Of a DNA stretch of 24,000 nt, positions 1,216-21,841 are shown piece after piece. A program made the translations under genes and the position numbers. The DNA is taken from positions 1,377,520 to 1,401,519 of the forward strand of contig NZ_CP073748.1 in assembly GCF_024398035.1 (NCBI RefSeq). The letters run 5' to 3'. Source of the stretch: Kordiimonas sp. SCSIO 12603. Its GTDB lineage: Bacteria > Pseudomonadota > Alphaproteobacteria > Sphingomonadales > Kordiimonadaceae. How positions within the stretch are numbered: position 1 is the first letter of the stretch; each line of letters begins with the position of its first letter. A model generated the notes under the pieces. It saw only the letters and a program-made list of their open reading frames with translations. It was not told the origin of the DNA and ran no database searches.

Positions 1216-1239
1216 ACTCTCTCATGTAAGTGGGATATC

Positions 1240-1267
1240 AAACGCGGCTTTCGGGCCGCGTTTTTTT
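1240..1267. terminator. Rho-independent terminator between convergent genes (probably bidirectional)
   Basis: Stem cgcggc (1243-1248) pairs with gccgcg (1255-1260), flanked by AAA upstream and a T7 run (1261-1267). It sits between the + strand oxidoreductase and the - strand K+ channel gene. Confidence 0.6.
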
Positions 1268-1739: not shown

Positions 1740-1750
1740 ATCTTTTCCCT

Positions 1751-1972: not shown

Positions 1973-2194
1973 GCCATACTTTCCCTGGAACGTTTTCTCT
2001 TAAATGCTGTTTAGCAGGATTGGCGCATAAAATCAGCTAGTAACATGAGCGTCACTTTATTGTGTGGAATTTATATCAAATTGTAAGGTTAAGGATTTGA
2101 TAATAAACAGTATATAGAAAACCTATTGGGGCCGGATTGCATCGTGTGGCTTGGCAGCAGTCACGATTGGCAATTTGTATGTTGAGGTAAAAAG

Positions 2195-2905
2195 ATGTCC
2201 GAATTTCTCGGCTTCTCTCTGGCGTTGGATCTGCTTTTCAATGGTCAGAATATGGATTATTGCGAAAGGCCGCTCAGCCTTTCTGCGATGGATAAATTCA
2301 ATATCATTGATGATATCCGTGAAGGTGGCCATGTTGCGGTAATCGCGCCCGGTGGCGGCCGTTTGGTGCGTAACCTTGTTGAGCGCGGTTTCCGTGTGGA
2401 TGCCTTTGAAGGGCGTGAGGAATGCCTTAGCCACCTGAAGGACCGTTTCGCAAACTTTCCTCGGATTGAATTAAGTAACATGACCCGGCTCGAGGATCCG
2501 TTTAAGCGGGAAAAGATGCATTATGATGCGATTTTCTGCATGGATGATCTTCGTTCTTTCCGTGAACGTGCTGGCTGGACAGAACATGTGCACCGTATCA
2601 TGAAGCCTGAAGGGCATTTCATTTATTCGCAGGTATCAAACAAGCTTCCTGCAAAGAAAAATACTTTGGGTAAATATTTTAATCTGGTTGGTAGCCATAA
2701 TGTAACGGAAGATACCTCTAAAGAGATCAGAGATAGTTACTTGAATCTGGATTACTGGCGGCCCACGGAAAAAGATATCAAGATGGCGAAAAGCACACTT
2801 GATATGGTTAAATCTGCTTCAGGCCTGCGCCGAAATATCATGAGTGGTGTGGAAGTTCGTTATGTTGTGTGGCAGAAGAAAAGTCTGACTGAAAGCATTT
2901 CATAA
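2195..2905 (+). CDS. Hypothetical protein, possible class I SAM-dependent methyltransferase fold
   Basis: Glycine-rich motif-I-like segment VAVIAPGGGRLVRNLVERGFRVDAFEG is followed by DAIFCMDDL and MKPEGHFIY (motif II/III-like). RBS GAGGTAAAAAG precedes the ATG. The motif I is divergent, so function is uncertain. Confidence 0.45.
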   Translation: MSEFLGFSLALDLLFNGQNMDYCERPLSLSAMDKFNIIDDIREGGHVAVIAPGGGRLVRNLVERGFRVDAFEGREECLSHLKDRFANFPRIELSNMTRLEDPFKREKMHYDAIFCMDDLRSFRERAGWTEHVHRIMKPEGHFIYSQVSNKLPAKKNTLGKYFNLVGSHNVTEDTSKEIRDSYLNLDYWRPTEKDIKMAKSTLDMVKSASGLRRNIMSGVEVRYVVWQKKSLTESIS

Positions 2906-2994
2906 ACCTTTTTCTATAATTGTTGCTTCATCAAGGGTTAAGTTAGCTGGTATATTATTGGAACCAACAATAGACAGCGGACGGAGTTGGTTAA

Positions 2995-3429
2995 ATGATG
3001 AAAGCACTTGGAACAGCACTGGTTTCCTGCGCGTTGGTGGCCACTGCTGCAGCAGCTTCCGACAAAGGTAGAGATCCAGAAAAGGTAACAAAAGAACTCG
3101 CTAAATATGAGCAAACTGGCGAAACCAAAGCATGTATTAAGGTTTCAAGAATTAGAAACACTAAAGTTCTTGATGATTATACAATTATCTTTAATGGCCG
3201 GAATAAAACCTCTTATTTGGTTAATCTGGAAAACAGGTGTCACGGCTTAGGCTTTGAAGAATCTATCGCTTACACGGTTCGAGCAGGTAGTTTGTGTAGA
3301 AGTGATATCTTTAGTGTTATCAACAGGGGGGGCGGTTTTATTCGTTCAACCTGTGGGTTCGCTTCCTTTGAGGTGATGAAGAAGTTACCAAAAGATCAGC
3401 AGAAAAATCAGCCGGCCCAATCAGAATAG
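2995..3429 (+). CDS. Secreted small protein, DUF6491-like
   Basis: N-terminal signal peptide MMKALGTALVSCALVATAAAA. The spaced-Cys pattern (C-I..SRIRNTKVLDD.TIIF...YLVNL..RC.GL...IAY....GSLCRSD......C) resembles DUF6491 periplasmic proteins. GGAG RBS upstream. Confidence 0.55.
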   Translation: MMKALGTALVSCALVATAAAASDKGRDPEKVTKELAKYEQTGETKACIKVSRIRNTKVLDDYTIIFNGRNKTSYLVNLENRCHGLGFEESIAYTVRAGSLCRSDIFSVINRGGGFIRSTCGFASFEVMKKLPKDQQKNQPAQSE

Positions 3430-3449
3430 GCCGATCGGATACTCTTAAT

Positions 3450-3487
3450 AAAAAAAGCCGGAGCAGCGTTATGCATCCGGCTTTTTT
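3450..3487. terminator. Bidirectional rho-independent terminator
   Basis: A7 run, then stem gccgga (3457-3462) pairing with tccggc (3476-3481), then a T6 run. It lies between the convergent DUF6491-like gene (+) and the autotransporter gene (-). Confidence 0.7.
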
Positions 3488-3507
3488 AGTGAATATCTTT
3501 AGAAGCT

Positions 3508-6500
3508 TTAGAAAGCCAGGCCGAAGTTGAAGCTCACTGAATGTGCGCGCTGTTGATCAAGCTTTTCGTACGCATAGTGAATGCGTGCGGTCGAATCGAT
3601 ACCGAAGATATTGAAGGCACCACCGATTTGTTCCACTGATTTTGCTGTCCGGTCTACTTCCGCTAGGAAGCTGGTGTCGCCGCCTACAAAAATTGCTTCG
3701 AGTGGTTCTGCATCAGCACCTGACAGGTTTTGAGTGTAGGAATAGAAAATCTCAGGCCGTACAATGCGTGTTTCATTTCTTGTTTTCCAATTGAAGTCGT
3801 AGCCGAGAGCCGCGCCAACTGTACCGTCTACCCGTGTGAAAGATGTACTTTCCACTGTTAGGTTTGCGCTATCGCCACCTTCTTCGGTGTAACCACCTTC
3901 TGAATAATTTTGCGCAGCAATACGGCCAAACGGCTTGATGCTTAATTTACCAACAGAAAGATTGTATCCCGCCTCGGCAGTAGCAACAAAGTTCCATCCA
4001 TTTGTGCGGCTTGTTACAAGGCGGTCAACGGTACCAAACTCGATATTCCGTTCACGGCGAATAGCAACATATTGCACCGTTGCCTGACCACCAAGATAGA
4101 AGCCACCAGCGCGTGTAAGGGCATAAACGGATGTAAACGGTGCGAAGGTTGATAGTTCGCTATCAATCGTATCATCTTTACCGGAAAGGCCGTTCAGCGT
4201 GAAGCCAGCGTTTACACCAACCACCAGATTTTTATTCACCGGAGCATCATAACCAAAAGTCAGGCCAACTGTTAAAAGACTGGCATCAAAAGCACTGATT
4301 TGGCTGGTGCGGTCACCGATTGAAGTTACCTCACGTGCCCATCCGCCGCTTGCGAAAGATTTGCCTTCTACATAGTCACCAAGCCGGTTTGATAAGTGGT
4401 TTGCCAACTGGCGTCTTGAAGCCTGTGCAAGGTAGGTAGAACCACCTGTGATATCAGGTAACAGAGCATTCAAAGCCGCTTCGGTTGTTTCCTGAGTTGT
4501 TAGACCAGATAGGCTGGCTTCCAGAACGTTATCCAGGTCAAGGCCACTGGTTACGATGTTGTCGTATAACCCTGTGGCTGCTGAATTGACATTAAGTTCA
4601 GATGCATCTTTGGGGCGTACATTCAGTGTAATTGTGCTGCCATCAGTGCCATCATTTTGTGTAAGTGAAACATCAAACAAGTACGGCGTGTTTGAAAGCG
4701 CAAGAGAAGAACCTGCGTCAGCCAGTGAAATATTGTTCGCTGTAATCAGATCAAAAGACTGCTGAGAATTCGTGAGGCGGGTAATAACTGGCACAATATC
4801 CACATCAGATGATGCAGTGAGTGTATCTGTAATGATCAGCTGGCCGTTTTGACCCGCTTCAGGGTTTACAATAAAGCGTAGTTCCGCATCGCCAGAAAAA
4901 TCAGCATTGGTGAAGTTCAATTGGCTAACGGAAGCAATTTCAATATCTGCATCATTCACTGAAAGGTCAAGTGTACCTTCAAAGCTTGAAGAGCCGCTGA
5001 AAACAGCTTCGTTGCGAATATTAAGCTGGTTGTTACCAAGCCCAAAGGAAAGGTCGCCTTCCAGTGTTCCGCCCTGAAGCGTAACGGTGTCATCACCGTC
5101 GCCCATTAGAACATCACCTACAAAAGTACCAGAGTTTGTAAGGTTGAAGCCGCTGGTGTTTGCTCGTACATCAAGGGCAATCGTATCACCACCGCCATTA
5201 CTGTCTGTGGCGATCAGGAAATTGCCTGTGTTTGTGAAGGTTGTAAGAGTGCCAGAGAGGTCCCGAATACCGTATGCGTTTTGACCTTCACCCAAGGAAT
5301 TTACCTGAATTGTATTGTTGTTGGTAAATTCAGAAAGTGAACCATCTTCACGGATCAGAATAGCTGTTGCCACACCACCGGGGCCGCGTGTTTGTGTACC
5401 ATCACTGTTATTGGTGATGAGAGCGTTGGTGCCGATGTTGATGATGCCCTGATTAAGGAACGTTGGTACGGTTACATTATTGCCAATAATTACACCCGTG
5501 GAATTATTATCCTGGGCAATAAGAGAAATGGAACCTGTATCAAACCAGATGCCACCTTCAAAGGTAACCGGGGCATCAGCTGTACCCTTGAATTCTACGC
5601 CTGTTGATTCAAGGCCATTGGAACCGCCGAGTGTTTCAATACGGCCTTTATGTACCCAGCTAAAGCCTGTGTCGCCAACTTCACCAAGTACAATATCATT
5701 GCCGCTTTCAGTAGAATCTACCAGAAAAGCAGGAGCCCCGCCTGTTGAGATAATAACGGAATCTGTTGCCACATCCGGATTGCCGTCATCATCCACATCA
5801 TTGTTTTGGCCTACGCCTTCAAACAAAACACCGCCAGTGATGCTATCTTCGATAAGAACCACGGCCTTCGCAGGTTCGGCTGCATTATCCGAAGTTGCAA
5901 CATCACCTGCTGTAAGGTTGCCTGCAATAGTGAATGAACCGTCAATGCGGTCACCTACACGAACAGCAACAGCGCCTTCATCATCAGTGTTCACGCTGCC
6001 ATCAATGGTTACATTGCCTGTTACCGGGCCATTAATATCAATACCAATGGTGTTAACGCCGATAACGTTGATATCACCATCGTAATTGATGTTGCCTTCA
6101 AAAGCGGTATCAATCGCAAAACCGCGGCCACCGCTGCCGTGTACATCGAACACGGCAGTATCTTCTATAGTAATATCACCTGCGTACCCTTGGTCGCCAT
6201 CAATAAGCAGGCCTACAACAGTTGTGTTGTTGGATTCGTTAAAATCACCAGCAGCCTGTACAGCTACAGAAACAGAACCAGCAAGAGTTAGGTCAGCCTG
6301 AATACGTTGATTGGAGGTATCAACAAGAAGGCCGCGCCCTGCCGCAATATCATTTGATGTAATGGTGCTGGAACTTTGGAGCGCAATATTATGGTTACCA
6401 TCCACGATAATCGCTGTCCCGTTTCCAACAGTCACCGATCCATCGGCGGTTACAGTAAGCGTGCCGTTATTGCCAATATTGAAACCACTTGTTCTTAGTG

Positions 6501-6615
6501 TTGTGGTGCGGGCTTCTCCCAATGTCGCATCCTGTGCGAAAGCTGGTGCTGATGCCAGAACGGCAAAAAGAGCAAGGGCTGAAACCTGTTGGCGGCGTGC
6601 AATACTACGAACCAC
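3508..6615 (-). CDS. Autotransporter outer-membrane protein (repetitive beta-helical passenger plus C-terminal beta-barrel)
   Basis: The C-terminal ~280 aa show alternating beta-strand pattern ending in the ...SVSFNFGLAF terminal-aromatic signature. The passenger is full of G/N/T/D-rich imperfect repeats (GNVTIDGSVNT..., GTLxxxxN). Sec signal is RRQQVSALALFAVLASAPAFAQDA. The ORF-track start at 6729 is a TTG without RBS; I prefer GTG at 6613-6615, preceded by AAGGA with a 7-nt spacer. Confidence 0.85.
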   Translation of the reverse strand: MVRSIARRQQVSALALFAVLASAPAFAQDATLGEARTTTLRTSGFNIGNNGTLTVTADGSVTVGNGTAIIVDGNHNIALQSSSTITSNDIAAGRGLLVDTSNQRIQADLTLAGSVSVAVQAAGDFNESNNTTVVGLLIDGDQGYAGDITIEDTAVFDVHGSGGRGFAIDTAFEGNINYDGDINVIGVNTIGIDINGPVTGNVTIDGSVNTDDEGAVAVRVGDRIDGSFTIAGNLTAGDVATSDNAAEPAKAVVLIEDSITGGVLFEGVGQNNDVDDDGNPDVATDSVIISTGGAPAFLVDSTESGNDIVLGEVGDTGFSWVHKGRIETLGGSNGLESTGVEFKGTADAPVTFEGGIWFDTGSISLIAQDNNSTGVIIGNNVTVPTFLNQGIINIGTNALITNNSDGTQTRGPGGVATAILIREDGSLSEFTNNNTIQVNSLGEGQNAYGIRDLSGTLTTFTNTGNFLIATDSNGGGDTIALDVRANTSGFNLTNSGTFVGDVLMGDGDDTVTLQGGTLEGDLSFGLGNNQLNIRNEAVFSGSSSFEGTLDLSVNDADIEIASVSQLNFTNADFSGDAELRFIVNPEAGQNGQLIITDTLTASSDVDIVPVITRLTNSQQSFDLITANNISLADAGSSLALSNTPYLFDVSLTQNDGTDGSTITLNVRPKDASELNVNSAATGLYDNIVTSGLDLDNVLEASLSGLTTQETTEAALNALLPDITGGSTYLAQASRRQLANHLSNRLGDYVEGKSFASGGWAREVTSIGDRTSQISAFDASLLTVGLTFGYDAPVNKNLVVGVNAGFTLNGLSGKDDTIDSELSTFAPFTSVYALTRAGGFYLGGQATVQYVAIRRERNIEFGTVDRLVTSRTNGWNFVATAEAGYNLSVGKLSIKPFGRIAAQNYSEGGYTEEGGDSANLTVESTSFTRVDGTVGAALGYDFNWKTRNETRIVRPEIFYSYTQNLSGADAEPLEAIFVGGDTSFLAEVDRTAKSVEQIGGAFNIFGIDSTARIHYAYEKLDQQRAHSVSFNFGLAF

Positions 6616-6909
6616 GTGTGCGTCCTTTATAATTCTTTGTCTGCTGTCTGATACGTGCCAGACCGCAGTTTCCTCCGAGTGCTGTATAGTGCTTTTGCAA
6701 GCTGAATGTTTGCTGAACAACCCCACCAAATACAGCCAGCCTATAATTCAGTTGAAAAATAGGGCAGATATAAGGCGTTGGTAACAGAAAAACCGCTTAG
6801 GGCAAAGCGCTATTCAGTGCCAGTGCAGATGTTTTCTGCCACTAGCATAAATAAGCCACACCCATGCTTAAGTTTATTCCCTGATTAGAGAAAATTTTAG
6901 ACTTTGGTT

Positions 6910-7620
6910 CTACAGTTCCCGAACCAGTTTTACGGCGCGGGATGTGAACTCGCGGCGGGTCAGTACAAACACCACAGCAAGCGTTGCGCTCATGAAAACA
7001 AGGGGGCCAACAAACCATGTAAGCCCCGCAAGCGCGAAGAAATAGGCCCTGATGCCCCGGTTGAAATGGTGCCCGGATGCAGAAGAAAGTTTGGCAGCCA
7101 CTGAGGCACGTTTCATACGCGCGGCTTTATCTTCATCATAACGGCTGTCGCTCATGCCGCCGATCACAATGGCACAGTAATTGGCAATGCGGAATGCCCA
7201 TGCAAACTTGAAGAAAGCATAAATGAAAATCCCTACCAGCAGGCCAACCCGCACCACGAAACCATCTGCGGTTAAGGGTTTCGCCAGTGGAATATGGGCA
7301 AAAGCTACTGCCAGCTGTTCGCTATAGCCCATCGCCGCAATAAGCCCACCCAGCACAAGGATAGTGGAGGACGCAAAAAAGCTGATACCGGTAACAAGAA
7401 TTTTAAGAACGCCCGTATCAATCATCCGCATCTCGCGGTTCGCGGCTTCTGTTAACCAGCGAAGTCGCTGCCCATCCATAAGGTGGGAAATTGCTCGGGT
7501 TTTATATTTGCTATGGTCTGCAAGGAATGTGTAAAGCGCCCAGAGAAGCAGGAAAAACAACAGCGCCATCATATCCATATCGCTGAAGTTCAGGCTTTCA
7601 GTGAATGTGGTGAATGTCAT
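6910..7620 (-). CDS. DUF599 family integral membrane protein
   Basis: Multi-TM profile and the segment RLRWLTEAANREMRMIDTGVLKILVTGISFFASSTILVLGG resemble DUF599 proteins. ATG is preceded by GAGAGGGGAAG. Confidence 0.6.
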   Translation of the reverse strand: MTFTTFTESLNFSDMDMMALLFFLLLWALYTFLADHSKYKTRAISHLMDGQRLRWLTEAANREMRMIDTGVLKILVTGISFFASSTILVLGGLIAAMGYSEQLAVAFAHIPLAKPLTADGFVVRVGLLVGIFIYAFFKFAWAFRIANYCAIVIGGMSDSRYDEDKAARMKRASVAAKLSSASGHHFNRGIRAYFFALAGLTWFVGPLVFMSATLAVVFVLTRREFTSRAVKLVREL

Positions 7621-7699
7621 ACTGATCTTCCCCTCTCGGCTTGGTTCCCTCTAGCTCAATACCCATAAAACATGCTGTTGGCCGTTTCTGCAACGTATT

Positions 7700-7951
7700 G
7701 TTTTTATGCGTGAAAACCACTGGTCTATTTTTGCATTGGGCCTTTGCAATAATCGTCACTTCCAGTCTGAAGATCCATCCCCATCTCTTGAACGTAGAGA
7801 TATGAATTCTTCGGGAAATAAGCCCCCAGCATTCCCAACCTGTGCCTCGCCCTACACAAAGCGCAGGTTTCCTCACCTCAGCTATCATTCCCGTAAGCTG
7901 ATGGTCTAAGCCCGCAACAGTCCCCTGATTTACTGTTGCGGGCTTTTTTTT
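7700..7951 (+). ncRNA. Candidate small RNA or structured leader ending in a strong intrinsic terminator (5' end undefined)
   Basis: No plausible CDS on either strand. Local hairpins are atctct/agagat (7783-7788 with 7796-7801), cctgtgc/gcgcagg (7839-7845 with 7861-7867) and tcagct/agctga (7878-7883 with 7896-7901). C-rich unpaired tracts include CCTCACCTC at 7871-7879. The stretch ends in an 11-bp GC-rich stem plus T8. Confidence 0.3.
7910..7951 (+). terminator. Strong rho-independent terminator with no upstream + strand CDS
   Basis: Stem gcccgcaacag (7910-7920) pairs perfectly with ctgttgcgggc (7933-7943), with a 12-nt loop and a T8 run (7944-7951). Confidence 0.8.
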
Positions 7952-8024
7952 ATTAAGAGGTTCACTTTTGGGGTGTGTCTCCCATATAGTGAAATAAGAA
8001 TGGTTCGCAAAAGGAAGATAGCTT

Positions 8025-8405
8025 GTGCGCTATATTTGGATGGCATGTGGGTGGATAGCATTTGTGCTGGGGGTGATTGGTGCCTTCCTGCCACTTTTAC
8101 CAACGGTACCCTTTCTTTTGCTGGCAGCTTTTTGTTTCTCACGCGGCTCGGATAAACTTCATAACTGGCTGTTGAACCACGAAAAATTCGGTCCGCCTAT
8201 CGCCGAGTGGCGCAAACACGGCGCCATTGCCACGCGCGTGAAATTTATGGCCATGGGCTTTATTCTTTTCTCAATCGGATTGAGCTTTCTCTATGATGTA
8301 CCCACACGCGGTTTCATCATCCAGATCGTGGTACTGTCCTGCGTTTCCCTCTTCATCCTAACCCGTCCTGCGCCCCCTAAAGAGGCCACTGAAGAGGGCG
8401 AGTGA
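8025..8405 (+). CDS. ybaN: YbaN family inner-membrane protein (DUF454)
   Basis: Signature GAFLPLLPTVPFLLLAAFCFSRGSDKLHNWLLNHEKFGPPIAEWRKHGAI is typical of DUF454/YbaN. GTG start at 8025 is preceded by AAGGAAG at 7-8 nt. Confidence 0.85.
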   Translation: MRYIWMACGWIAFVLGVIGAFLPLLPTVPFLLLAAFCFSRGSDKLHNWLLNHEKFGPPIAEWRKHGAIATRVKFMAMGFILFSIGLSFLYDVPTRGFIIQIVVLSCVSLFILTRPAPPKEATEEGE

Positions 8406-8420
8406 ATTTGCTCTTAATAA

Positions 8421-8448
8421 TTGAAAAATAGTCTTTAATGTATATCTT
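8421..8448 (+). promoter_or_regulatory. Candidate sigma70-type promoter for the KAP NTPase gene
   Basis: TTGAAA (8421-8426), 16 nt spacer, TATCTT (8443-8448), about 35 nt upstream of the GGTGGGGG RBS. Pattern match only. Confidence 0.3.
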
Positions 8449-8481
8449 GAGCACCTTGCTGGAATAAAGCGTAGGTGGGGG

Positions 8482-10809
8482 ATGTATATGTTGTTCGAGT
8501 ATTTTTGGTTAGGGTTGTTTCCGACGCTACCATTCAAGTTTTTTTTATATGTGTTGCAAAGTTTTTTGCAAATCGGTTGGGAGCTTTGGCTGGTTTCGCT
8601 GATATTGTTTAGTTCATCTTATTTGTTTTGCAAATCGTTTGTTGATGAAGAAAGTGATACGGCTGAGACCGATGGTTTTAAGATTTCCAATAAAACTATG
8701 GTGCACTCAGCTAGTGTAAACATATCTGAAGATAGGCTAGGCTATGCACTGTTTGCAAAAAAGATAGCTAGGGCACTTGAGAGGCCTGATAAAGGTGATG
8801 GTTTTGTAGTTGGAATTGAAGGAGGTTGGGGGATTGGAAAAACCACACTTATAAATTACGTAAAATTGTCATTTAAGTCAGAGACGAAGCATATCTCTTT
8901 CTCGCCTTGGTTGATAAGCGATAGAGATAAATTGATATACTCTTTGTTGATGGAGCTAGAGTATAAAATTCAAGAAGACAAACTTCTCCCATATAAAGAT
9001 ATTCAGTCGTTGAGGGATTATTCTCGACGTTTTTCGGAGCGTGTTGGGCCGATTGTGAAACTGATGGATACATTGAAAGCTTTGCCTTTCAGTATGGTGT
9101 CTTTTGATGCATTTACTAGTCTTTTGAAATCTGATCAAAAACCACTCGAAGATTTAAAGTCTGATGTTGTCTCCGGGTTACAGAAGTTACCAAATCATTT
9201 TATTATCTTTATTGATGACCTCGATCGTTTGGAACCCTCTGAGGTTGTTGAAGTTTTAAGAATGGTTAGGGCTGCCGTCGAGTTTCCAAACATAACATAT
9301 GTGTTTAGCTATGATGAAGATAACGTAGCAAAGGCGGTATCTAATCATTTCCAAATTGATAACGGTTACGATTATTTAGGGAAGATTATCAATGCAAAGT
9401 TTGTGGTGCCTAAGCCTGAACAAGATGATTTGCTGACTTGGTTTTTTGACGAATGTTATAGTTTGTATGAACAGGTGCTCGGCCTGACAAATCTTAGAAT
9501 TATCCGAACTGATTTGCTTGCGATAAGGAATTTAGTGAATTTAGAAACGCCTAGGCAGGTGTTGACACTAATAAACTCAATTAAAATGAGGTGGCCATCC
9601 GTAGCTGAAAATGTAAGTTTTCGCGATTTTATATGGTTGGAAGCAATTAAGTATGACAACCCAGTTTTATACAAAGCGATTGAATATTATGTGACAAGTT
9701 ATTTTAGAATTCAGGATACTAAGCACAAACGGATATGGATGGATCGGCTGAAAGATCAGGTACAAAAGGCATTTGATCCAGAACGTAGAACAGATGACTA
9801 TAGTAATGCCGCTCTCAGTATGCTTCTTCCGGGTTCTTCAGGAGGGAGCACATTACAGTTATTTGAGAATGAGAGCGAAACGAAAATTGTTGAAAATAGA
9901 CAATTTAAAAGACTAGCCAGTGTGAATTATTATAAGTATTTTTTCCTTCACGATGCAGGAATTGGTCATCTTTCCGATAGAGAATTCTCCGACGCTTTGA
10001 ACGCTCTGGAAACACGTGAAGGCGCGATAGAAGTATTACGCTTTTTAGGTGATGAAGTTCGCTCTAATGGTTCGACTAAGTTAGATAGTTTTTTGTACCG
10101 TATTCAAAACGAAGATATCAACCTCATCTCAAAAGATGTTGCGTGTAATATGATAATCGGACTGGCCGACTACATGGACGAATATCTCCTGAAGGATGGG
10201 AATGAGCATTGGGGGCGTATCCTTATATGGAGTGTTGCCACGGTTATCCTATCGAGGTTTATCAAGTTAGTTCAGGGTATTGAGCGTGGAAACTTATTGA
10301 TTGATATATGTAATAATCTTAAAGCAAAAAGTTGGTTTACTATAGATTTTCTGTGGAACGAAATGATAGCTCATGGTGAAACGGAGCATGCAAGTAAGCC
10401 TGAAGATCAGTGGTTGCTAAACTCTGAGGAGCTAAACTCGTTAAAGTGTTATCTGATCGATAACGTATACGAAAATATGTCCGAATCTATAGCAGATGTC
10501 CCACAGTTTTTTGACTATATCTACACTTGGTGGGAAATTCACCACCCATCTCTAAAAAAATGGTGGAATATGGTTTCGGTATCAGATGAAAAGGTTTTAG
10601 AAATATTATTGAGGTTACGTAATCTATCTACAGCAGAAATAAGGCCATTAGATATAGATCAAGTAAGAGCGTATTTCGATATACATGTAGGTCATTTACT
10701 CATAGGTATTAGCGATAGAAATCCTGGAAATCAGGAAATTCATAGAAAAATTAATATCTTAGATGCGGCTATAGAAGCCGGAAATAACCGAGTTTATAAA
10801 AAGAAATAA
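8482..10809 (+). CDS. KAP-family P-loop NTPase with N-terminal hydrophobic (2-helix) region
   Basis: N-terminal DRLGYALFAKKIARAL lead-in. Walker A GGWGIGKT (8821-8844). KAP-type Walker B IIFIDDLDRLEPSEVVEVLRMVR (from 9202). ETPRQVLTLINS (from 9544) matches the KAP NPR..KR.iN motif. About 400 aa of helical C-terminal region follow. The first ~55 aa (FWLGLFPTLPFKFFLYVLQSFL, WELWLVSLILFSSSYLF) are hydrophobic. A strong SD GGTGGGGG lies immediately upstream of ATG 8482/8488. Confidence 0.85.
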   Translation: MYMLFEYFWLGLFPTLPFKFFLYVLQSFLQIGWELWLVSLILFSSSYLFCKSFVDEESDTAETDGFKISNKTMVHSASVNISEDRLGYALFAKKIARALERPDKGDGFVVGIEGGWGIGKTTLINYVKLSFKSETKHISFSPWLISDRDKLIYSLLMELEYKIQEDKLLPYKDIQSLRDYSRRFSERVGPIVKLMDTLKALPFSMVSFDAFTSLLKSDQKPLEDLKSDVVSGLQKLPNHFIIFIDDLDRLEPSEVVEVLRMVRAAVEFPNITYVFSYDEDNVAKAVSNHFQIDNGYDYLGKIINAKFVVPKPEQDDLLTWFFDECYSLYEQVLGLTNLRIIRTDLLAIRNLVNLETPRQVLTLINSIKMRWPSVAENVSFRDFIWLEAIKYDNPVLYKAIEYYVTSYFRIQDTKHKRIWMDRLKDQVQKAFDPERRTDDYSNAALSMLLPGSSGGSTLQLFENESETKIVENRQFKRLASVNYYKYFFLHDAGIGHLSDREFSDALNALETREGAIEVLRFLGDEVRSNGSTKLDSFLYRIQNEDINLISKDVACNMIIGLADYMDEYLLKDGNEHWGRILIWSVATVILSRFIKLVQGIERGNLLIDICNNLKAKSWFTIDFLWNEMIAHGETEHASKPEDQWLLNSEELNSLKCYLIDNVYENMSESIADVPQFFDYIYTWWEIHHPSLKKWWNMVSVSDEKVLEILLRLRNLSTAEIRPLDIDQVRAYFDIHVGHLLIGISDRNPGNQEIHRKINILDAAIEAGNNRVYKKK

Positions 10810-10821
10810 TACGTTATTGAT

Positions 10822-12000
10822 TTACCCCAAAAACGTCTCAAGTCGTGCGGCGATGTTCTCACGCAAGTTCATATAAAACAGCGCCATATCCAGGTTATGG
10901 TAATTGCCGCCGAAAATGCCTGCATTGAGGGGCGCTTGCTCGGGTTTTGAGATTTTCAGGAAACCATGCTCATCAAGCTGGGCATCTGTGCCCGGCAGCA
11001 TGGGGCCGATAAGCCCGCTGCACTTAAGGCCGAGCGGAGTATCTGCACCTGCAGCGTACAGCTTTGGCAGCAAGTTCATATCATTTGGCACTGGTGTGCA
11101 GATGCCTTTGTGCAGGCTTTTATCTGCGTGGGCACCATCCGCTTTCCAGTTAAGGGGATTAATAGCTTTTACAGGCGTCGCCGCACGGCGGAACCAGCCT
11201 GATTTAGCCCAGTGTTCAGCCGCATCGGGTTGATGAAGGGCATCTGTGCCTTCAAGGAACGTGTCGTATGCCACAAACACGCCCGTATCATCCGCAGCTG
11301 TTGCAGGTGCAGCAATATGGGCCATATCTTTTACGTTTTCGTCTGTCACTTTAAAGCCGATCAGGTAGGCGGCGATAAAGCGTTCCTTAAGCGCGGGATC
11401 ATCAAATTCTTCTGCAAGCAGCCGCATAGCCATGGCGCAGCCCTGGCTGTGGCCCGCAATGAAAAACGGCCTGCCGCCATTTTCAACGTCAATGAAATGT
11501 TTGAATGCCCGGCGCACATCACGGAATGCGAGATCAAGGGCTGCGCGCCCGCTTTCACTTGGGTTGAAGAAAACTGAAAGGGTTGCCTGCCTGTAGCGCG
11601 GCGCGAAAATGCGGCAGCTGCCGTTAAAGATGCTGGCTTGCCCCGGCATGATTACATGGTCCACCACTTCATCAGCGCGGTTGCCGCCAATGGCTGCGTT
11701 CCATGTGCGGGTGCCTACATAAGTGGTGGGATGAATATAAAACACATCCGCCAGTGTATCTTCCGCGTTAGTGCGCTCAATACCTTCTGGCGTTAAGGCG
11801 GCGTTGCCTAGCTTGCCGGGTTTTGCGGCCCACATATCATCATCTGTATAGTCTGGCTCAAGTGGTGGTGTTTTTTCATCGAACGTATGGTTCGGGTGGA
11901 TGGCTTCCAGCCACAATTGCAAACTGGATTTACCGGATGCCTGAGTAGAAGATTTATGAGTAGAAGAATTACCAGAGGAAGTAACAGAAAGATCGTCCAC
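10822..12000 (-). CDS. DUF3089 domain-containing alpha/beta hydrolase (lipase-like)
   Basis: DUF3089 hallmarks are DVFYIHPTTY, FAPRYRQATL and the nucleophile elbow FFIAGHSQGCAM (GHSQG). GTG start. The N-terminal ~30 aa are Ser/Thr-rich with no obvious signal peptide, so the start is uncertain. Confidence 0.8.
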   Translation of the reverse strand: MDDLSVTSSGNSSTHKSSTQASGKSSLQLWLEAIHPNHTFDEKTPPLEPDYTDDDMWAAKPGKLGNAALTPEGIERTNAEDTLADVFYIHPTTYVGTRTWNAAIGGNRADEVVDHVIMPGQASIFNGSCRIFAPRYRQATLSVFFNPSESGRAALDLAFRDVRRAFKHFIDVENGGRPFFIAGHSQGCAMAMRLLAEEFDDPALKERFIAAYLIGFKVTDENVKDMAHIAAPATAADDTGVFVAYDTFLEGTDALHQPDAAEHWAKSGWFRRAATPVKAINPLNWKADGAHADKSLHKGICTPVPNDMNLLPKLYAAGADTPLGLKCSGLIGPMLPGTDAQLDEHGFLKISKPEQAPLNAGIFGGNYHNLDMALFYMNLRENIAARLETFLG

Positions 12001-12081
12001 AAGAATACCCCAACCGAAAACGAATAAATGAATATTTGTCCATATAGGATGGAAAGCTTAAGATTCCACCCTCACAATGGT

Positions 12082-12636
12082 TTAAATTTTAATGGCCTGC
12101 ATGATAATGCGCCGATCTGTCTCGCCTACGCTACGGAACGGGTAACAGCTGACTAGCAGGATTTGCTCCGCCGCTGATTGCGGCACCGAAAGCGCATCTT
12201 TATGTGCCACCCACGCGCGGGTGAGACGAAAGCTTTCTTCAGCACCATCAAGGGTTTTAAAGGTGAGGATATCCCCGTCCTCAAGATGCTCTAGGAACGC
12301 GAAATGGGTATCCCGGTGCCCAAATACGATAGGGGTGCCGCTCACCTCAGCCATTACGGGGCCAAACGCGAGCGCGCGCATATTATCCCCTGCCAGCACA
12401 TAGTGGGTGATGCCTTTATCCGGCAGGCTGAGTTTCGCCACCGGGTGTGTGTCCGCCCATGACCACGGCTTTAGGGGCTTGCCCGTTTTCAGGCTTTCTT
12501 CCCATGCGGATTTCACCAGCACTGGGGCGAGGGCGGCCTTGGCAGCGATGATCGCACCGCCGCCAAGTTGCCACAGGCCAAGCGCTGTGAGGAGGGCAGC
12601 GCCAGCCATGATGGTTTTATGTTTCCTACGCTTCAC
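12082..12636 (-). CDS. Sortase, proteobacterial (class GN / marine proteobacterial type)
   Basis: N-terminal membrane anchor MKRRKHKTIMAGAALLTALGLWQL, catalytic His context VFGHRDTHF, Cys context ILLVSCYPF, and a downstream Arg (TDRRII). GTG start overlaps the 3' end of the upstream substrate gene by 11 nt. Confidence 0.8.
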   Translation of the reverse strand: MKRRKHKTIMAGAALLTALGLWQLGGGAIIAAKAALAPVLVKSAWEESLKTGKPLKPWSWADTHPVAKLSLPDKGITHYVLAGDNMRALAFGPVMAEVSGTPIVFGHRDTHFAFLEHLEDGDILTFKTLDGAEESFRLTRAWVAHKDALSVPQSAAEQILLVSCYPFRSVGETDRRIIMQAIKI

Positions 12637-14743
12637 GGCGTGCCTCCCGGCGTAGCCACAAGATAAGCTCGGTGGCGAACAGCAGCAGGATAAAACCAGT
12701 GATCAGCTTCAGGTCTTTCATCGTGGCTGTTTGTGGGCCAGAGAAGTTTGACTGCGCCATCATTTGCGGTGCGCTAACACGGCGAAGTTTCATACCTTTC
12801 GGCAGGTTTTCAGGAACGATACTGTCTTGCGCTGAGGTGCCTTGCGGGCGGCTGATTTTTTCCTCTACTGCTACAAAGCTTGTATATTTGCTGACAATTT
12901 GGTGCGTGAGCGCTGTTTTCAGAATTTGTGCTTTTGCTTCTTCCTGCGGTAAGCCCCTGAGTGCGGCATCAGAAATGGCTTCCACTTTCTTGCGTGCCCA
13001 CAGTTTGCTGATACCTTTCCCGTTTTCCATGCGCTTTAGGCGTTCGCTGATCTTCCAGCGTTTGCTGTTTACGCTTTCGCCTTCAAGCCGGATTTTGCTG
13101 TCATCGGTTTTCACCACAAATACCGTTGGGCGGTTGCCGTATAAATCAGGAAGGCGTGTGGGATAAGCTTCAAACATACCGTTTCCTGAAAGCGTGAGTT
13201 TTTGAACGCTTGGGGCGGCCATGTTGCTGAACAACTCTTCCAGTGTTTTCTCCGCTTCCAGTGGATTATCAATTTGCGTGTGGATACCGCGGCCAAATTC
13301 AGCTGCCTTGCGCATAAACCAGCCGTTTGGTGCATTCCCGACACCAACAGTGAACAGGCGTGTGGTACCAAGCTTTTCTTCTACCAGCTTGAACATAGCT
13401 TCTTCGTAGCCAATAGCACCGTCTGTCAGGAACATGATCTGCGGTAGGCTTTTTTCATCGGCGGGAGCTGTTTGGTTCAAATCCAGTGCGTTCACAAGAG
13501 CGGGCATCATTTCGGTCCCACCATCTGCTTCCAAACCCAAAATATAATTTCTGGCTCGATTTACGTTTTCAGCGGTTGCTTGTTGTGTAGCACCAAATAA
13601 ACGACTGTAATCGTTATTGAATTTTATGATATCGAACCTGTCTTCCGTGCGCAGGCGGTCCACCGCTTCAAGAAGGGCACGTTTGGCCTGAACAATAGAG
13701 TGCCCATGCATAGAGCCTGATACATCAATGATAAATTGAATATCTCTTGGTGGTGATTTCTGTAGGCTTTCTTCCTTCTTTGGTGGAATAACTATGCCGA
13801 GAACATATGTGCCACTTTCGGTTTCTTCTTTTATAAACAGCGGTTTGGGTTTGCCCGCAGGTTTATACTCCCAGCGCAGGATAAAATCCCGGTCAGCTGG
13901 TTCGGTATCAGCCCGGAGCGTAATGTGATAGCGGTTTTCTTGCTCGGCAATCCGAATATCATGGCTGGGGCTGGTGAGTTTCTGAACAGCTGCACCAGGC
14001 GCCAAAAAAATATCAAAAACCGCCAAATTCCCAGCGTTTTGAGGATGGCGGTAAATGCCGTGTTTTTGGTGATGCGTAGCGAGCGCGCTTTTGGGTTCAG
14101 GTGTGGGTACCATATCTTCAAGTCGGTGGTACCGAGGTGTAATCGCCTGCGGTAGTTTCCAACTGAAAGTAAGGCCATTTTGCTCCGCATGGGTAATGAA
14201 GGAAATCTCTACCGTAATCACCGCACCCGGCGCCACATTCCCTACCTTTGAACTGAACATGTTTGGCCTTATCTGGCTGAGGAGGGCAGCTTTCTTGCCT
14301 TCTTTCACAGCCTGTTCGTAAATGCGTTTTGCTTCCTGCTTTTCCTTGATTTTTCCTTTGATACGTTTTTCGCCTACCAGCATTTCAAATGCATCAATAG
14401 CGGCAGTATCAGGAAGCGGGAAACGGTATGTGCCGTTAACCCACTGGTCGGTGGTATTCCTGAAGGATTGTTTGACGGTGGTGTAGGCGATGAAGCCGTT
14501 GATCTCTGTTTTCACCTCGCTTGAAAGCTGGAGGGCATCAAGCCATAACTGCGGCATGCCTTCATGCGGGATCGATTTTATTTCAAACCCACCTTCCTGC
14601 CAGCTTCTAAGTTGTTTCTGGTCAGAGCTTGCAGTTGGCGGTGATGTTTCATCCGCGAGTGCAGGTCGGGTGTTTAGAACAAGGCCGAAGGCGAGTGCGG
14701 CGGCTGTATAGGCATAGAGGAGAGGCTGTGAAAAGCGTAGCAT
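12626..14743 (-). CDS. Marine proteobacterial sortase target protein (VIT domain plus von Willebrand factor A domain plus C-terminal sorting signal)
   Basis: Signal peptide LLYAYTAAALAFGLVLNTRPALA. The VIT-like N-terminal half includes TEINGFIAYTTVKQSF..TYRFPLP. The vWA MIDAS motif is FIIDVSGSMHG...GGTEM...FLTDG. The C-terminal signal is GPQTAT (12722-12739), then a hydrophobic helix, then RREARREA. Architecture and the adjacent sortase match the known dedicated sortase-substrate pair. Confidence 0.85.
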   Translation of the reverse strand: MLRFSQPLLYAYTAAALAFGLVLNTRPALADETSPPTASSDQKQLRSWQEGGFEIKSIPHEGMPQLWLDALQLSSEVKTEINGFIAYTTVKQSFRNTTDQWVNGTYRFPLPDTAAIDAFEMLVGEKRIKGKIKEKQEAKRIYEQAVKEGKKAALLSQIRPNMFSSKVGNVAPGAVITVEISFITHAEQNGLTFSWKLPQAITPRYHRLEDMVPTPEPKSALATHHQKHGIYRHPQNAGNLAVFDIFLAPGAAVQKLTSPSHDIRIAEQENRYHITLRADTEPADRDFILRWEYKPAGKPKPLFIKEETESGTYVLGIVIPPKKEESLQKSPPRDIQFIIDVSGSMHGHSIVQAKRALLEAVDRLRTEDRFDIIKFNNDYSRLFGATQQATAENVNRARNYILGLEADGGTEMMPALVNALDLNQTAPADEKSLPQIMFLTDGAIGYEEAMFKLVEEKLGTTRLFTVGVGNAPNGWFMRKAAEFGRGIHTQIDNPLEAEKTLEELFSNMAAPSVQKLTLSGNGMFEAYPTRLPDLYGNRPTVFVVKTDDSKIRLEGESVNSKRWKISERLKRMENGKGISKLWARKKVEAISDAALRGLPQEEAKAQILKTALTHQIVSKYTSFVAVEEKISRPQGTSAQDSIVPENLPKGMKLRRVSAPQMMAQSNFSGPQTATMKDLKLITGFILLLFATELILWLRREARREA

Positions 14744-14834
14744 GATGATATCCCGTTCTGATCTGTTGGGATAACTCTGCCTATAGAATAGGGTGGTTGC
14801 CTGCCGAGATAGTGGCAGGCTTGAGAAACATTAA

Positions 14835-14866
14835 GGCGAACTCATGCCGAAGAAACGCAGTTCGCC
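14835..14866 (-). terminator. Possible terminator hairpin downstream of the PEP-CTERM gene
   Basis: 8-bp stem ggcgaact (14835-14842) pairs with agttcgcc (14859-14866). On the - strand it is followed by TTAATGTTTCTC, only a moderately T-rich tail. Confidence 0.4.
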
Positions 14867-14875
14867 CTGTTTGCC

Positions 14876-15610
14876 TTATTTATGAATACGGCGATTTGTT
14901 TTCACACGAACAAGAGCAGGGCGCTGTTGACGGAAATATGCAAGACCAAACATAAGCGGAAGTAGAAGCAGGATCGCAGATGGTTCAGGCACTGCTGCTG
15001 GTTCAACCGTAATGGTGGTGGTTGCAAAACCGGTATCCCGTGCGCCGTTAATCTGTGGCTGATTACTGTTTGGAATAATCGTACAACCCGCTGGCTGGAA
15101 CGTAATCAGTGACGTGATTAAACCACAGTCGCCGCCCGGGGTAACAATATCGCCGTTTGCAAGTGCAACAAGCTCACCCTGAGGCAAGGTAATCGCCAAA
15201 CCAAGCAGGTAATTCCCCGGTGAAGAAAATACGGTACCGGCACCTGTTGCGAAGGTTGTTGTAAGGCCACCTGCAACATCGGCACCGCTGAATGTTGCAA
15301 TAATGTTCGCTGCCGTTAGTGCGGTTGCAGATGCTTCTGACGCATAATAGGTAAGCTCAAAGCTTGAAAGATCAGGGATGTCGCACAAACTCCAGCGAGG
15401 TTGCGTGCCAATGTTTGCACCTGTCACGGGGCCTTGAATAAGAGCGGAACCACAAGCGTTGATGGTAAGATCTTCACCAAGACCTACAGGCGCATATGTT
15501 CCTACATCAGAGAAGGTATCGGTGTAGAAATCAAATGTTCTTGCTTGTGCTGTTTCACCACTGAGGGCGAAACCAAAAAATGCAGCTGCAATAGCAATCT
15601 TCTTAAACAC
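14876..15610 (-). CDS. PEP-CTERM sorting domain-containing secreted protein
   Basis: Signal peptide MFKKIAIAAAFFGFALSGETAQA. The C-terminus VPEPSAILLLLPLMFGLAYFRQQR... (14879-14992) is a canonical PEP-CTERM motif (PEP, TM helix, basic cluster). GTG start is preceded by AAAGGA with a 7-nt spacer. Confidence 0.8.
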   Translation of the reverse strand: MFKKIAIAAAFFGFALSGETAQARTFDFYTDTFSDVGTYAPVGLGEDLTINACGSALIQGPVTGANIGTQPRWSLCDIPDLSSFELTYYASEASATALTAANIIATFSGADVAGGLTTTFATGAGTVFSSPGNYLLGLAITLPQGELVALANGDIVTPGGDCGLITSLITFQPAGCTIIPNSNQPQINGARDTGFATTTITVEPAAVPEPSAILLLLPLMFGLAYFRQQRPALVRVKTNRRIHK

Positions 15611-16069
15611 GATAGTATCCTTTAGTTACTCGTGACCGTATGAATAAGTTTCACATCTTTAATATTTCTAATCTACATAGGTTGTATAAAGAAAAAGTAA
15701 AGAGCGTATTTGCAGAGATATAGGCGTTTTGTCTGGGAATGTACCGCGAAAAAAAGTGCCTAGCGTAAACGTGAGGTTATAGAGGGTATTACTAAACGGG
15801 TTTAAGCTATAGTTATGAAAGAGGTTTCTCTGCGATTTTCAGTTGGCCGCACTTTGAAAACATTTTACCGCAATTTCCACCTTTCACCGGAAAAGTATGG
15901 CATCAGCATCTCAGGGAAAGTGCAATAGTATAACCTGAACGGCATTATGCTTAAGTTTACAGAAGGGGTGAACTTAGGTTTTGTCCAAAGATAATATACA
16001 GGCCATCGCAAATCCGCTGTTTGAGTAAGGGCAAACAGCAAACTGTAATGATGCGAGAGCGAGGAAATA

Positions 16070-18172
16070 ATGAACCTACTTTTAGGTGGGGAGCGTAAGA
16101 ACGCTTTAACTGTGCTGAAATCGGCGACAGCGATTTTGGCGATAACGGCATGCACCACTATGTCGTATGCGGTGGATAACGCCGCAGTTGATGATGATGG
16201 AGATGTGCCTGTAGCCAATTCGGCAAACACGTATCCAGCTTCATTCTTTGATCAGTATAACCCTCAAAATGCCTTTGAAATGATCCAGCGGTTGCCTGGC
16301 TTTTCATTTGATGGCGGTTCAAATGCGCGGGGTTTTGGGGGTAACGCTGGTAACGTGTTGATTGATGGTGCACGACCTTCTTCAAAATCAGCAAGTTTGC
16401 GTGAAGTTCTTATTCGTATTCCTGTAGCGCAGGTTGAACGGATTGAGATCGTGCGCGGTGGTACAAGTGCTGGCGATACCGCAGGCCAATCCGTTGTTGC
16501 GAACGTTATTAAGAAAGCAGGCGGCACCAGTGGTACCTGGGTTGCCAAATTGCGCCGTCCACCTGATGGGCGTGTACTACCAAATGTTGAAGGCTCACTT
16601 GCAACGAAAATTGGAGGGTGGGATACCACAAGCCGGTTTGATGTTGGTTGGAATGGTGGCAATCGGGATGCGCTTCTTCGTGATGTAGATGCCGAAGGAA
16701 ACCTGATCGAAAGTGAGGATGAAACTTTCGAAAACCAGTTTAACTTCCAGGTGTTCTCTGTTGAGGCAATCCGAGATGCTTTTGGTGGTAAGCTAACTGT
16801 AAACGGCCAATTTTTCCGCGATAGATTTAAAGGCGACTTCTTCCGTGAAGGATTTAATGGCCGTTTGCCTGATGGCGGAACGCCGGATTTTACATGGCAG
16901 AACAACGAAAACGGTGGTGGTGAAGAATATGAACTGAGCGTTGATTGGAAAAAAACGTTCAGCAATCAGTGGAAACTTCATTCTATCATACTTGGTACCA
17001 TCAATAATTTTGGTTTTGAAAGCCGCACTATTGAAAGCGAACCAATTGATGTTGTGAATGATATTACGGATTTTGAACAAAACCGTAAGCGAAAGGAATT
17101 CATTCTCAGAACCACCTATGGTGATGCAGGTTCGAACAAATTCAAGCCAGAGTTTGGTTTTGAAGTAGCGCGTAACAGTCTGGATTCTGATCTGTCGATT
17201 GTATCAAACGGTGAAGCAATTGATCTAAGTTCAGCCAATGCGAGCGTTCGAGAAATCCGGGGTGAAGCATTTGCTAACTTTAACTGGGCAGCTACGAAAA
17301 AGCTTTCCGTGGATGGAGGCCTGACCGGCGAAATTTCAGAGATTGAAGTATCAGGTGACGCTGGTAACAAACAGACATTCAAGTTTTTGAAACCACGCCT
17401 TACCGCAACGTATAACTTCAGTGATAACATTCAGTGGCAGTGGCAGATTGAACGGACGGTTGGGCAGCTTAACTTCCGTGATTTTGCCGCAAGTGCACAG
17501 ATTAATGATGACCGTACAACGGCTGGTAACCCTGATCTGGCACCAAACAGTGCTTGGGAGCTTTCTACAACATTTGATTGGAAGTTCAGCGAGCGTGGCT
17601 CATTGAGTGTTAACGCTTTCCACGAATGGCGCAGTGATATTCTTGAACAGATTATTCTGGCAAGCGGTGACCCGGGCCGTGGTAACGCGGGTAACGCGCG
17701 TTTTTACGGTGTGGAAGCGGAACTAAATATCCCGCTTGATTTCATTCTGCCGGGTGGCCTTCTTGAAATTGAAGCAAACCTAAGGGATGCAAGTTTTGAT
17801 GATCCCGTAACAGGGCAGAACCGCCGTATCAGTGGCTTTAATCCATCTTTCCTTGGTTTTGATTTCCGTCAGGACCTTGTTAAAGCGAAGGTTTCATGGG
17901 GTATTAGATATAATGGCATCTTCAGGGAAGAAGTATTCCTCACTGATCAGATTATCAGCTTCCGTGGTAACCGTCGGGTTAATGCCTTCATTGAAACAAC
18001 ACGTTGGTTTGGTGTGAAAACCCGTTTTGCTGTGGATCTGATTAACACTGGTAAGTTCCGCAGACAGCGTGATTTCTTTGATCCCGCCCGCGGAGGTGCT
18101 TTCACTGGTTCTGAGATTTCAGACCGTACCAGAAAGCCGGAATTCCGTATCGAAGTGTTTGGTCAGTTCTAA
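16070..18172 (+). CDS. TonB-dependent outer-membrane receptor
   Basis: Plug-domain motifs are EMIQRLPGFSF, GNVLIDGARP and VERIEIVRGG. A long beta-barrel follows with the C-terminal aromatic ending ...FRIEVFGQF. There is a signal peptide, and RBS GAGGAA precedes the ATG. Confidence 0.85.
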   Translation: MNLLLGGERKNALTVLKSATAILAITACTTMSYAVDNAAVDDDGDVPVANSANTYPASFFDQYNPQNAFEMIQRLPGFSFDGGSNARGFGGNAGNVLIDGARPSSKSASLREVLIRIPVAQVERIEIVRGGTSAGDTAGQSVVANVIKKAGGTSGTWVAKLRRPPDGRVLPNVEGSLATKIGGWDTTSRFDVGWNGGNRDALLRDVDAEGNLIESEDETFENQFNFQVFSVEAIRDAFGGKLTVNGQFFRDRFKGDFFREGFNGRLPDGGTPDFTWQNNENGGGEEYELSVDWKKTFSNQWKLHSIILGTINNFGFESRTIESEPIDVVNDITDFEQNRKRKEFILRTTYGDAGSNKFKPEFGFEVARNSLDSDLSIVSNGEAIDLSSANASVREIRGEAFANFNWAATKKLSVDGGLTGEISEIEVSGDAGNKQTFKFLKPRLTATYNFSDNIQWQWQIERTVGQLNFRDFAASAQINDDRTTAGNPDLAPNSAWELSTTFDWKFSERGSLSVNAFHEWRSDILEQIILASGDPGRGNAGNARFYGVEAELNIPLDFILPGGLLEIEANLRDASFDDPVTGQNRRISGFNPSFLGFDFRQDLVKAKVSWGIRYNGIFREEVFLTDQIISFRGNRRVNAFIETTRWFGVKTRFAVDLINTGKFRRQRDFFDPARGGAFTGSEISDRTRKPEFRIEVFGQF

Positions 18173-18204
18173 GCAATTTGAACACACTTCCGTTAGGTAA
18201 CTTG

Positions 18205-18245: not shown

Positions 18246-18255
18246 GGAGAGGGCA

Positions 18256-19641: not shown

Positions 19642-19642
19642 C

Positions 19643-21832: not shown

Positions 21833-21841
21833 CATAATTGG

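Follow-up and report, generated by a model that had tools for sequence, protein, structure and literature searches.

A divergent PifA-family KAP NTPase gene carried as strain-specific cargo on the chromosome of Kordiimonas sp. SCSIO 12603

We analyzed a 24,000-nucleotide stretch of DNA (the window; NZ_CP073748.1, positions 1,377,520 to 1,401,519) from Kordiimonas sp. SCSIO 12603 (Alphaproteobacteria, order Kordiimonadales). Between ybaN and a convergent DUF3089 gene, the window contains a single gene whose product is identical to KFE96_06285 and which, by sequence comparison, is a divergent member of the PifA family over both its NTPase domain and its C-terminal domain. The gene is carried on a 3.85-Mb contig and is therefore chromosomal. 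Taken together, it is probably a horizontally acquired, single-gene cargo of the ybaN/DUF3089 slot that acts alone in abortive infection. The PifA family, its C-terminal domain, and N-terminal transmembrane (TM) segments in KAP proteins are already known; what is new is a highly divergent chromosomal member of the family without pifC. The gene and its parts are as follows.

8488-10809, plus strand: PifA-family KAP NTPase gene, 773 amino acids (aa), equal to KFE96_06285 of Kordiimonas sp. SCSIO 12603
8488-8646, plus strand: hydrophobic N-terminal extension, residues 1-53 of the 773-aa form, a candidate membrane anchor
8647-8697, plus strand: acidic linker (DEESDTAETDG...), predicted to be disordered (AlphaFold 2 [AF2] predicted local distance difference test [pLDDT] score of 43-47 for residues 51-70), ending before Met73
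8743-9588, plus strand: KAP P-loop NTPase domain, residues 88-369 in the 775-aa numbering (Pfam PF07693, E 1.1e-44)
8821-8844, plus strand: Walker A motif GGWGIGKT, with invariant G114, W116, G117, G119, and K120
9202-9228, plus strand: Walker B motif IIFIDDLDR, with invariant D245, D246, D248, and R249
9547-9576, plus strand: TPRQVLTLIN motif, with T356 near-invariant and P357 and R358 invariant (TPR at 9547-9555)
9589-10806, plus strand: all-helical C-terminal domain common to F PifA (PADLOC profile to residue 734, BLASTP to residue 733)

When the protein was compared with the PADLOC models, the PifA model (PDLC02361) matched residues 77-734 over profile positions 10-689 of 720, with an E value of 3.8e-140 and a score of 466.7 bits. 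BLASTP aligned residues 70-733 with residues 9-708 of F PifA (WP_000698737.1; 741 aa, encoded by the gene next downstream of pifC on F and R64), with 26% identity and an E value of 2e-56, and all 46 aligned homologues also matched the PADLOC PifA model. PADLOC and similar current tools would label this gene PifA. The runner-up models were PDC-S20 (66 bits) and QatA (48 bits), both of which have KAP-type NTPase cores. PDC-S20 was rejected as a weak match. QatA was rejected as well, since its NCBIfam model gave 37.4 bits against a cutoff of 600 and the neighbors here are ybaN and DUF3089, whereas Qat has QatBCD as neighbors.

The protein has no close relatives. Its next-best match among 5.8 billion clustered proteins was 28% identical, and the best non-self match in a HMMER search of 1.84 billion representatives was about 29-30% identical. 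That search returned 15,019 representatives at E <= 1e-3, 7,200 at E <= 1e-10, and 436 at E <= 1e-30, and these last 436 representative clusters show that the PifA family extends well past F-like plasmids. Relatives were also found on 1,112 plasmid records, chiefly from Klebsiella and Escherichia. A phage collection gave just two weak partial matches, so that a phage-borne gene is unsupported, and a search of PHROGs matched one family, of unknown function.

The NTPase domain matched PF07693 with 153.4 bits, above the gathering threshold (cutoff, 20 bits). A first-pass annotation of this DNA had described a 775-aa open reading frame (ORF) with Walker A, Walker B, and TPRQVLTLIN motifs; the ORF listing and the homologue alignment columns agreed with it throughout. 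In alignments with 35 and 45 homologues, the motif columns were invariant or near-invariant, and the catalytic motifs of the Kordiimonas protein are intact. The conserved T-P-R of the third motif is a candidate sensor/arginine motif of KAP NTPases. A TM insert inside the NTPase domain is expected of KAP P-loop NTPases. The first-pass annotation had remarked that no hydrophobic insert separates Walker A from Walker B, and hydropathy windows confirmed this, with no hydrophobic window within residues 121-241. F PifA is the same exception.

The roughly 400 aa that follow had been regarded as an uncharacterized C terminus. They are instead the PifA family's conserved C-terminal domain and no new appendage, with P450, R477, S480, D566, and W618 invariant across the family in the homologue alignment. 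This region is a candidate phage-sensor/effector domain. An AF2 model built from 46 sequences (pLDDT, 85.5; predicted TM-score [pTM], 0.77) contained an alpha/beta NTPase and, after it, an all-helical domain, the helices of which mostly had pLDDT values of 85-97. The closest solved folds were RdrA of RADAR, ORC/Cdc6, and Avs3/4, all with low TM-scores, and a sequence search of the PDB found no PifA structure. RdrA (PDB 8hr8 and 8fnu), a ring-oligomer defense ATPase, was the top solved-structure match, with a Foldseek E value of 1.6e-6 over the whole chain, but its TM-score was only 0.26-0.29, its identity was 9-13%, and no RdrB deaminase partner gene adjoins the Kordiimonas gene; RdrA/RADAR was rejected as an assignment.

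Within the C-terminal domain, residues 580-598 of the 775-aa form (10219-10275; ILIWSVATVILSRFIKLVQ) make up the top Kyte-Doolittle (KD) 19-residue window of the protein, at 1.66. This segment sits within a confidently modeled helix at residues 577-594 and is probably buried in the protein core; if PifA-like proteins make the membrane lesion directly, it could instead insert into the membrane.

The composition of the gene and its position relative to a sister genome mark it as foreign. The features concerned are as follows.

8025-8405, plus strand: ybaN (DUF454 inner-membrane protein; Pfam DUF454, 4.8e-39), the core gene on the left flank
8406-10817, no strand: strain-specific AT-rich cargo segment of 2,412 nt, without alignment to K. 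laminariae
8421-8448, plus strand: sigma-70-like promoter match TTGAAA-16-TATCTT, a consensus match only (9/12)
8473-8478, plus strand: Shine-Dalgarno (SD)-like AGGTGG, 9 nt 5' of ATG 8488, with the G-run extending to 8481
10810-10821, no strand: 12-nt spacer between convergent stop codons, without a terminator
10822-12000, minus strand: DUF3089 gene (alpha/beta-hydrolase-like; Pfam DUF3089, 9.9e-62), the core gene on the right flank

The ORF (8482-10809, plus strand) runs uninterrupted for 775 codons from the first in-frame ATG at 8482. The second ATG, at 8488, is the likely start of translation and is the one used in the NCBI annotation. The cargo segment has a GC content of 0.372, compared with 0.473 +/- 0.021 (minimum, 0.413) in 335 windows of equal size from the rest of the 24 kb, and the GC content at third codon positions (GC3) is 0.357, compared with 0.40-0.63 in the surrounding genes. 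The AT-richness described in the first-pass annotation is therefore real, although its value of about 58% GC for the DUF3089 gene was too high; the actual value is 52.7%. The promoter that it assigned to the gene is likewise present as a sequence match, but promoter-like matches are no more common in the region than in shuffled sequence (10 versus 8.6 +/- 2.9). Its description of a 12-nt gap to the opposing stop codon was accurate, and no terminator-like hairpin was found in that spacer between the gene and the convergent DUF3089 gene. A weak terminator-like hairpin does occur on the minus strand at 10722-10736, within the 3' end of the pifA-like gene and downstream of DUF3089, where it could end DUF3089 transcripts inside the foreign gene.

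In blastn alignments, three blocks of the window (positions 1-8405, 10818-15064, and 15759-22095) were collinear with the genome of K. laminariae 5E331, with 93-94% identity; the first of these blocks was 93.1% identical to the K. laminariae locus (here L003). Collinearity stops at 8405, where the ybaN stop codon ends, and restarts at 10818, four bases before the DUF3089 stop codon. These limits are nearly the same as the insertion borders drawn in the first-pass annotation (8406-10821). The YbaN protein is identical in K. laminariae and the DUF3089 orthologue is 97% identical, and the slot between them (L003 11184-12537) holds an unrelated 1,354 bp that is likewise AT-rich (GC content, about 0.39-0.43). 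The pifA-like gene is therefore cargo specific to this strain, in a slot of variable content, and not a core gene conserved in this position with genome-typical composition across the genus. Both the GC content of 0.372 and the absence of the gene from the same slot in K. laminariae support horizontal acquisition, as had been proposed.

The K. laminariae cargo consists of two convergent ORFs, of 249 aa (11186-11935, plus strand) and 171 aa (11939-12454, minus strand). Neither had a Pfam, PADLOC, or PHROG match, and they are possibly an uncharacterized defense or toxin-antitoxin pair. In a metagenome-assembled genome (GCA_041156585.1; locus L011, 7297-12690), a DUF3089 gene encoding a 76% identical protein is followed by two S9 peptidase genes and a glutathione S-transferase (GST) gene and then by DUF599, with no KAP gene and no ybaN called in the interval. 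The DUF3089-to-DUF599 interval is plastic across the family, and synteny is gone in relatives more distant than this one. The sample behind these comparisons is small, as an exact-match look-up of YbaN gave the K. laminariae contig only.

At the borders of the slot, we found no tRNA gene, no Rfam family, and no integrase gene. Neither flanking repeats, direct or inverted, nor a target-site duplication could be identified convincingly; the repeats that were present were short two-copy matches. The cargo borders of the two genomes share no common sequence. Because these border hallmarks are absent and the borders are unshared, the simplest reading, although not shown, is that the cargo was swapped by homologous recombination in the flanks.

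The three homologue loci that could be retrieved for context all had mobile, prophage-like, or restriction-type surroundings: one (L005) adjoins an integrase and an excisionase gene, one (L007) adjoins a DDE transposase gene beside a prophage-like ERF/repressor block, and one (L009) lies amid N6/N4 methylase, Mrr, HNH, and insertion sequence (IS) genes. When the window and six homologue loci were searched with tblastn, no PifC homologue was found (best E value, 0.52). The gene directly upstream of the pifA-like gene is ybaN, and the pifC-pifA operon arrangement of F and R64 does not occur here. The alphaproteobacterial and metagenomic homologue loci all lack pifC, and the pifC partnership looks specific to enterobacterial plasmids. 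The Kordiimonas protein and F PifA therefore have in common a two-part layout of about 660 residues, in which a KAP NTPase domain without a TM insert precedes the all-helical C-terminal domain, the character of a single-protein effector, and a location on horizontally mobile DNA. They differ in that F PifA, 26% identical, is encoded on an enterobacterial plasmid, whereas the gene described here lies on a marine alphaproteobacterial chromosome with no pifC upstream.

By homology with F PifA, the protein may serve as a lone sensor-effector of abortive infection, a role that is uncertain at 26% identity. F PifA, the phage T7 exclusion protein of the F plasmid, is a KAP NTPase without TM helices that acts peripherally at the membrane; T7 infection results in depolarization and nucleotide leakage, and sensitivity is set by T7 gp1.2 and partly by the capsid protein gp10 (PMC13001434, PMC8594841, PMC11990801). 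Single-gene KAP NTPases with C-terminal regions of unknown nature are validated defenses, and their activity requires Walker B and the C-terminal region (PMC13552941). If the Kordiimonas protein works similarly, its helical C-terminal domain would recognize one or more phage proteins, as F PifA responds to gp1.2 and gp10, and binding or hydrolysis of NTP by the KAP domain would switch the protein to another conformation or oligomeric state. Such a switch is suggested, but not established, by the nearest solved folds, RdrA and Avs, which are ring-forming or oligomerizing defense ATPases. Once activated, the protein would produce a permeability lesion in the inner membrane, with depolarization and nucleotide leakage, and phage development would stop. 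In the least certain step, the N-terminal extension, if it is translated, may hold the protein at the membrane constitutively. The first-pass proposal of a stand-alone phage-defense or abortive-infection module is credible on this evidence, given a near end-to-end match to a curated defense model and three of three homologue loci in mobile or restriction-type surroundings.

Several points weigh against a lone, membrane-held, PifA-like abortive-infection protein. The pifC partner is absent, and no known defense gene was found beside the pifA-like gene in the 24-kb window. The target range of F PifA is very narrow, and the BASEL authors considered that it may not have evolved primarily for immunity (PMC8594841). 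The validated protein EF_KAP did not behave as an abortive-infection system (PMC13552941). At 26% identity to F PifA, both the trigger and the effector chemistry of the Kordiimonas protein may differ. The extension has no support from conservation, since no relative has it, and its mean KD hydropathy of 1.10 is below the 1.31 +/- 0.33 obtained from shuffles of its own DNA, which is 48% T. Its best 19-residue segment, at +3.1 on a Hessa-type scale and 1.5 on the KD scale, is less hydrophobic than the bona fide TM helices in the 24-kb window (YbaN, DUF599, a channel, and the anchor of a vWA protein), which scored -1.2 to +2.1 and 1.8-2.5, respectively.

The hydrophobic extension is unique within the PifA clade and, judged by sequence, is the only atypical feature of the gene. 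Met73 (ATG 8698) is an alternative, canonical start. None of the alignments with the 39 closest homologues or with the 150 best representatives begins before query residue 62, and Walker A lies at residue 112 (773-aa numbering), compared with a median of 50 in the 138 representatives with a recognizable Walker A. The 72-residue hydrophobic-plus-acidic extension is absent from F PifA and from the 138 best-scoring PifA-like representatives inspected, and the few other N-terminal extensions in the clade are hydrophilic. A search with just the first 70 residues gave no match, but it also missed the database entry that contains them (P0001) and carries no weight. One explanation is that Met73 is the true start, in which case the gene would encode a canonical PifA-family protein of about 703 aa without an anchor, and positions 8482-8697 would be a T-rich untranslated leader that stayed open by chance. 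All inspected homologues begin 10-25 residues ahead of the DRLGF motif, which is exactly the place of Met73, and the Walker A position and alignment starts given above point the same way. Any frame of the T-rich extension DNA yields a hydrophobic peptide, and one out-of-frame translation is more hydrophobic than the in-frame one; when the 159-nt hydrophobic part was shuffled, 5.3% of the sequences had no stop codon, and the T content is nearly equal across the three codon positions (0.44/0.43/0.40). The hydrophobicity of the extension is thus fully explained by its T-rich composition. Other evidence argues for the longer form, however. The 72 codons upstream of Met73 stay open in only 0.6% of shuffles, and the codon log-odds of the extension are +0.11 in frame compared with -0.41 and -0.49 in the other two frames, a pattern that the remainder of the gene also has. 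AGGTGG precedes ATG 8488 by 9 nt, no SD-like sequence was found 5' of ATG 8698 ('ccaataaaactATG'), and NCBI annotates the long form. On balance, the extension is likely translated, and a start at Met73 is unlikely.

Whether a translated extension would span the membrane is a separate question, and a genuine anchor falls slightly short of being probable. The first-pass annotation had placed two hydrophobic helices ahead of the NTPase domain. A hydrophobic stretch does exist there, but it is only marginally hydrophobic, and instead of a two-helix hairpin the AF2 model has a short helix at residues 2-9 and a single 38-residue helix at residues 18-55 (pLDDT, 60-77). The suggestion that an N-terminal anchor makes the protein an undescribed variant is weak, as an N-terminal TM segment is modeled in EF_KAP (PMC13552941) and such segments are found in 14 distant KAP relatives of 830-1,020 aa, which have strongly hydrophobic segments N-terminal to Walker A. 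These 14 proteins (P0041, P0055, P0060-62, P0064-69, and P0071-73) resemble the Kordiimonas protein in having hydrophobic segments before Walker A but differ in their length and in matching over the NTPase domain only (about 28-44% coverage; E 1e-11 to 1e-28). Each has between one and four segments of strong hydrophobicity (about -4 to +0.8, with one at +1.3), compared with +3.1 here. EF_KAP and other single-gene KAP defenses from Enterococcus and gut metagenomes are, like the present protein, lone KAP NTPases with a domainless region of about 300-400 aa, and EF_KAP has a modeled N-terminal TM helix, whereas the extension here is only a candidate anchor (PMC13552941). By the published descriptions, EF_KAP is set apart by an additional TM helix inside the KAP domain and by its nonabortive behavior, and the C-terminal regions of such proteins are diverse and unlike known proteins, whereas the C-terminal domain here is that of PifA (PMC13552941). 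A bolder proposal, tentative at best, is that the 5' end of the frame was extended into T-rich sequence to give a lineage-specific N-terminal anchor, making a peripheral sensor-effector integral to the membrane, and that ybaN and DUF3089 bound an unrecognized, exchangeable defense slot whose K. laminariae cargo could be a new defense pair.

Other readings of the gene as a whole were weighed against a PifA-like defense role. The KAP NTPase might serve mainly outside defense, in membrane-associated signaling or assembly or in a mobile-element function, with phage exclusion being incidental. It has been suggested that KAP NTPases control membrane-associated complexes (PMC13552941), the narrow range of F PifA has made authors doubt that immunity is its primary role (PMC8594841), and the gene lies outside any recognizable defense island in the window. 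We nevertheless consider this reading improbable: the gene is strain-specific and compositionally foreign, the content of its slot is swapped between sister genomes, its homologues occur in mobile or restriction-type contexts, and the only activities that experiments have characterized, in the PifA family or in related single-gene KAP proteins, are directed against phages. Decay of a transferred gene to a nonfunctional remnant is very unlikely. The gene is a singleton without close relatives and is packed against a convergent gene with no terminator, but its 773-codon frame is intact, the family-invariant residues are all kept along the full length, the AF2 model has high confidence, and codon usage favors the reading frame along its whole length. 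Least credible of all is the Tmn class of transmembrane NTPases (YobI family), to which the first-pass annotation had pointed. PADLOC v2 includes a Tmn model, and no Tmn match was obtained at E <= 1, while PifA scored 467 bits. The likeness is superficial, in that both are single-gene P-loop NTPases with hydrophobic segments and are membrane associated (here by prediction) in a defense role. The signature of Tmn is a pair of TM helices within the P-loop domain, and none lies between Walker A and Walker B here; on these two grounds, the Tmn assignment was rejected. Tmn is phylogenetically distinct from KAP, and it acts by Mg2+ export and plasmolysis with no depolarization (PMC13001434).

PifA is among the earliest-known abortive-infection proteins, but work on it has been confined almost entirely to enterobacterial plasmids, and it has no solved structure or molecular mechanism. 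A distant chromosomal homologue that lacks pifC and has a confident AF2 model provides a second reference point for defining essential residues. If the extension is a true anchor, it would give independent support for the action of PifA at the membrane. The ybaN/DUF3089 slot, a variable site of small size and sharp limits, could be searched for further cargo in Kordiimonadaceae. These findings do not overturn current understanding.

The remaining neighbors of the gene in the window, besides the flanking DUF454/ybaN and DUF3089 genes, are a sortase gene with its VIT/vWA target, DUF599, and an autotransporter gene. On the minus strand at 12082-14743, the sortase gene (184 aa) overlaps the gene for the 705-aa VIT/vWA protein by 11 nt, and the latter protein has a C-terminal TM-like segment at residues 680-698. 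The two genes look like a proteobacterial sortase-target pair that is conserved with DUF3089 in relatives. A protein with HD and HD_assoc domains, dGTP-triphosphohydrolase-like, is encoded at 19643-20989 on the minus strand, 9 kb away, and is conserved in K. laminariae. The T7 trigger of F PifA, gp1.2, is a dGTPase inhibitor; the proximity of a dGTPase-like gene to the pifA-like gene is probably coincidental.

Apart from the cargo segment, a second patch, at 15065-15758, did not align with K. laminariae (694 nt here and 598 nt there). It spans the 5' part of a 244-aa ORF (14876-15610, minus strand; no Pfam match) together with AT-rich upstream sequence (GC content, about 0.37-0.41). Additional AT-rich stretches (GC content, about 0.39-0.42) occur at 2600-3200 and 22435-24000; the ORF list has no complete entry of >= 110 aa after 22434, a region that lies past where the K. 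laminariae locus ends. Finally, the autotransporter ORF (3508-6729, minus strand) encodes 1,073 aa with a TTG start as listed, compared with 1,035 aa called in K. laminariae, and the autotransporter may differ in start site or length between the two genomes.

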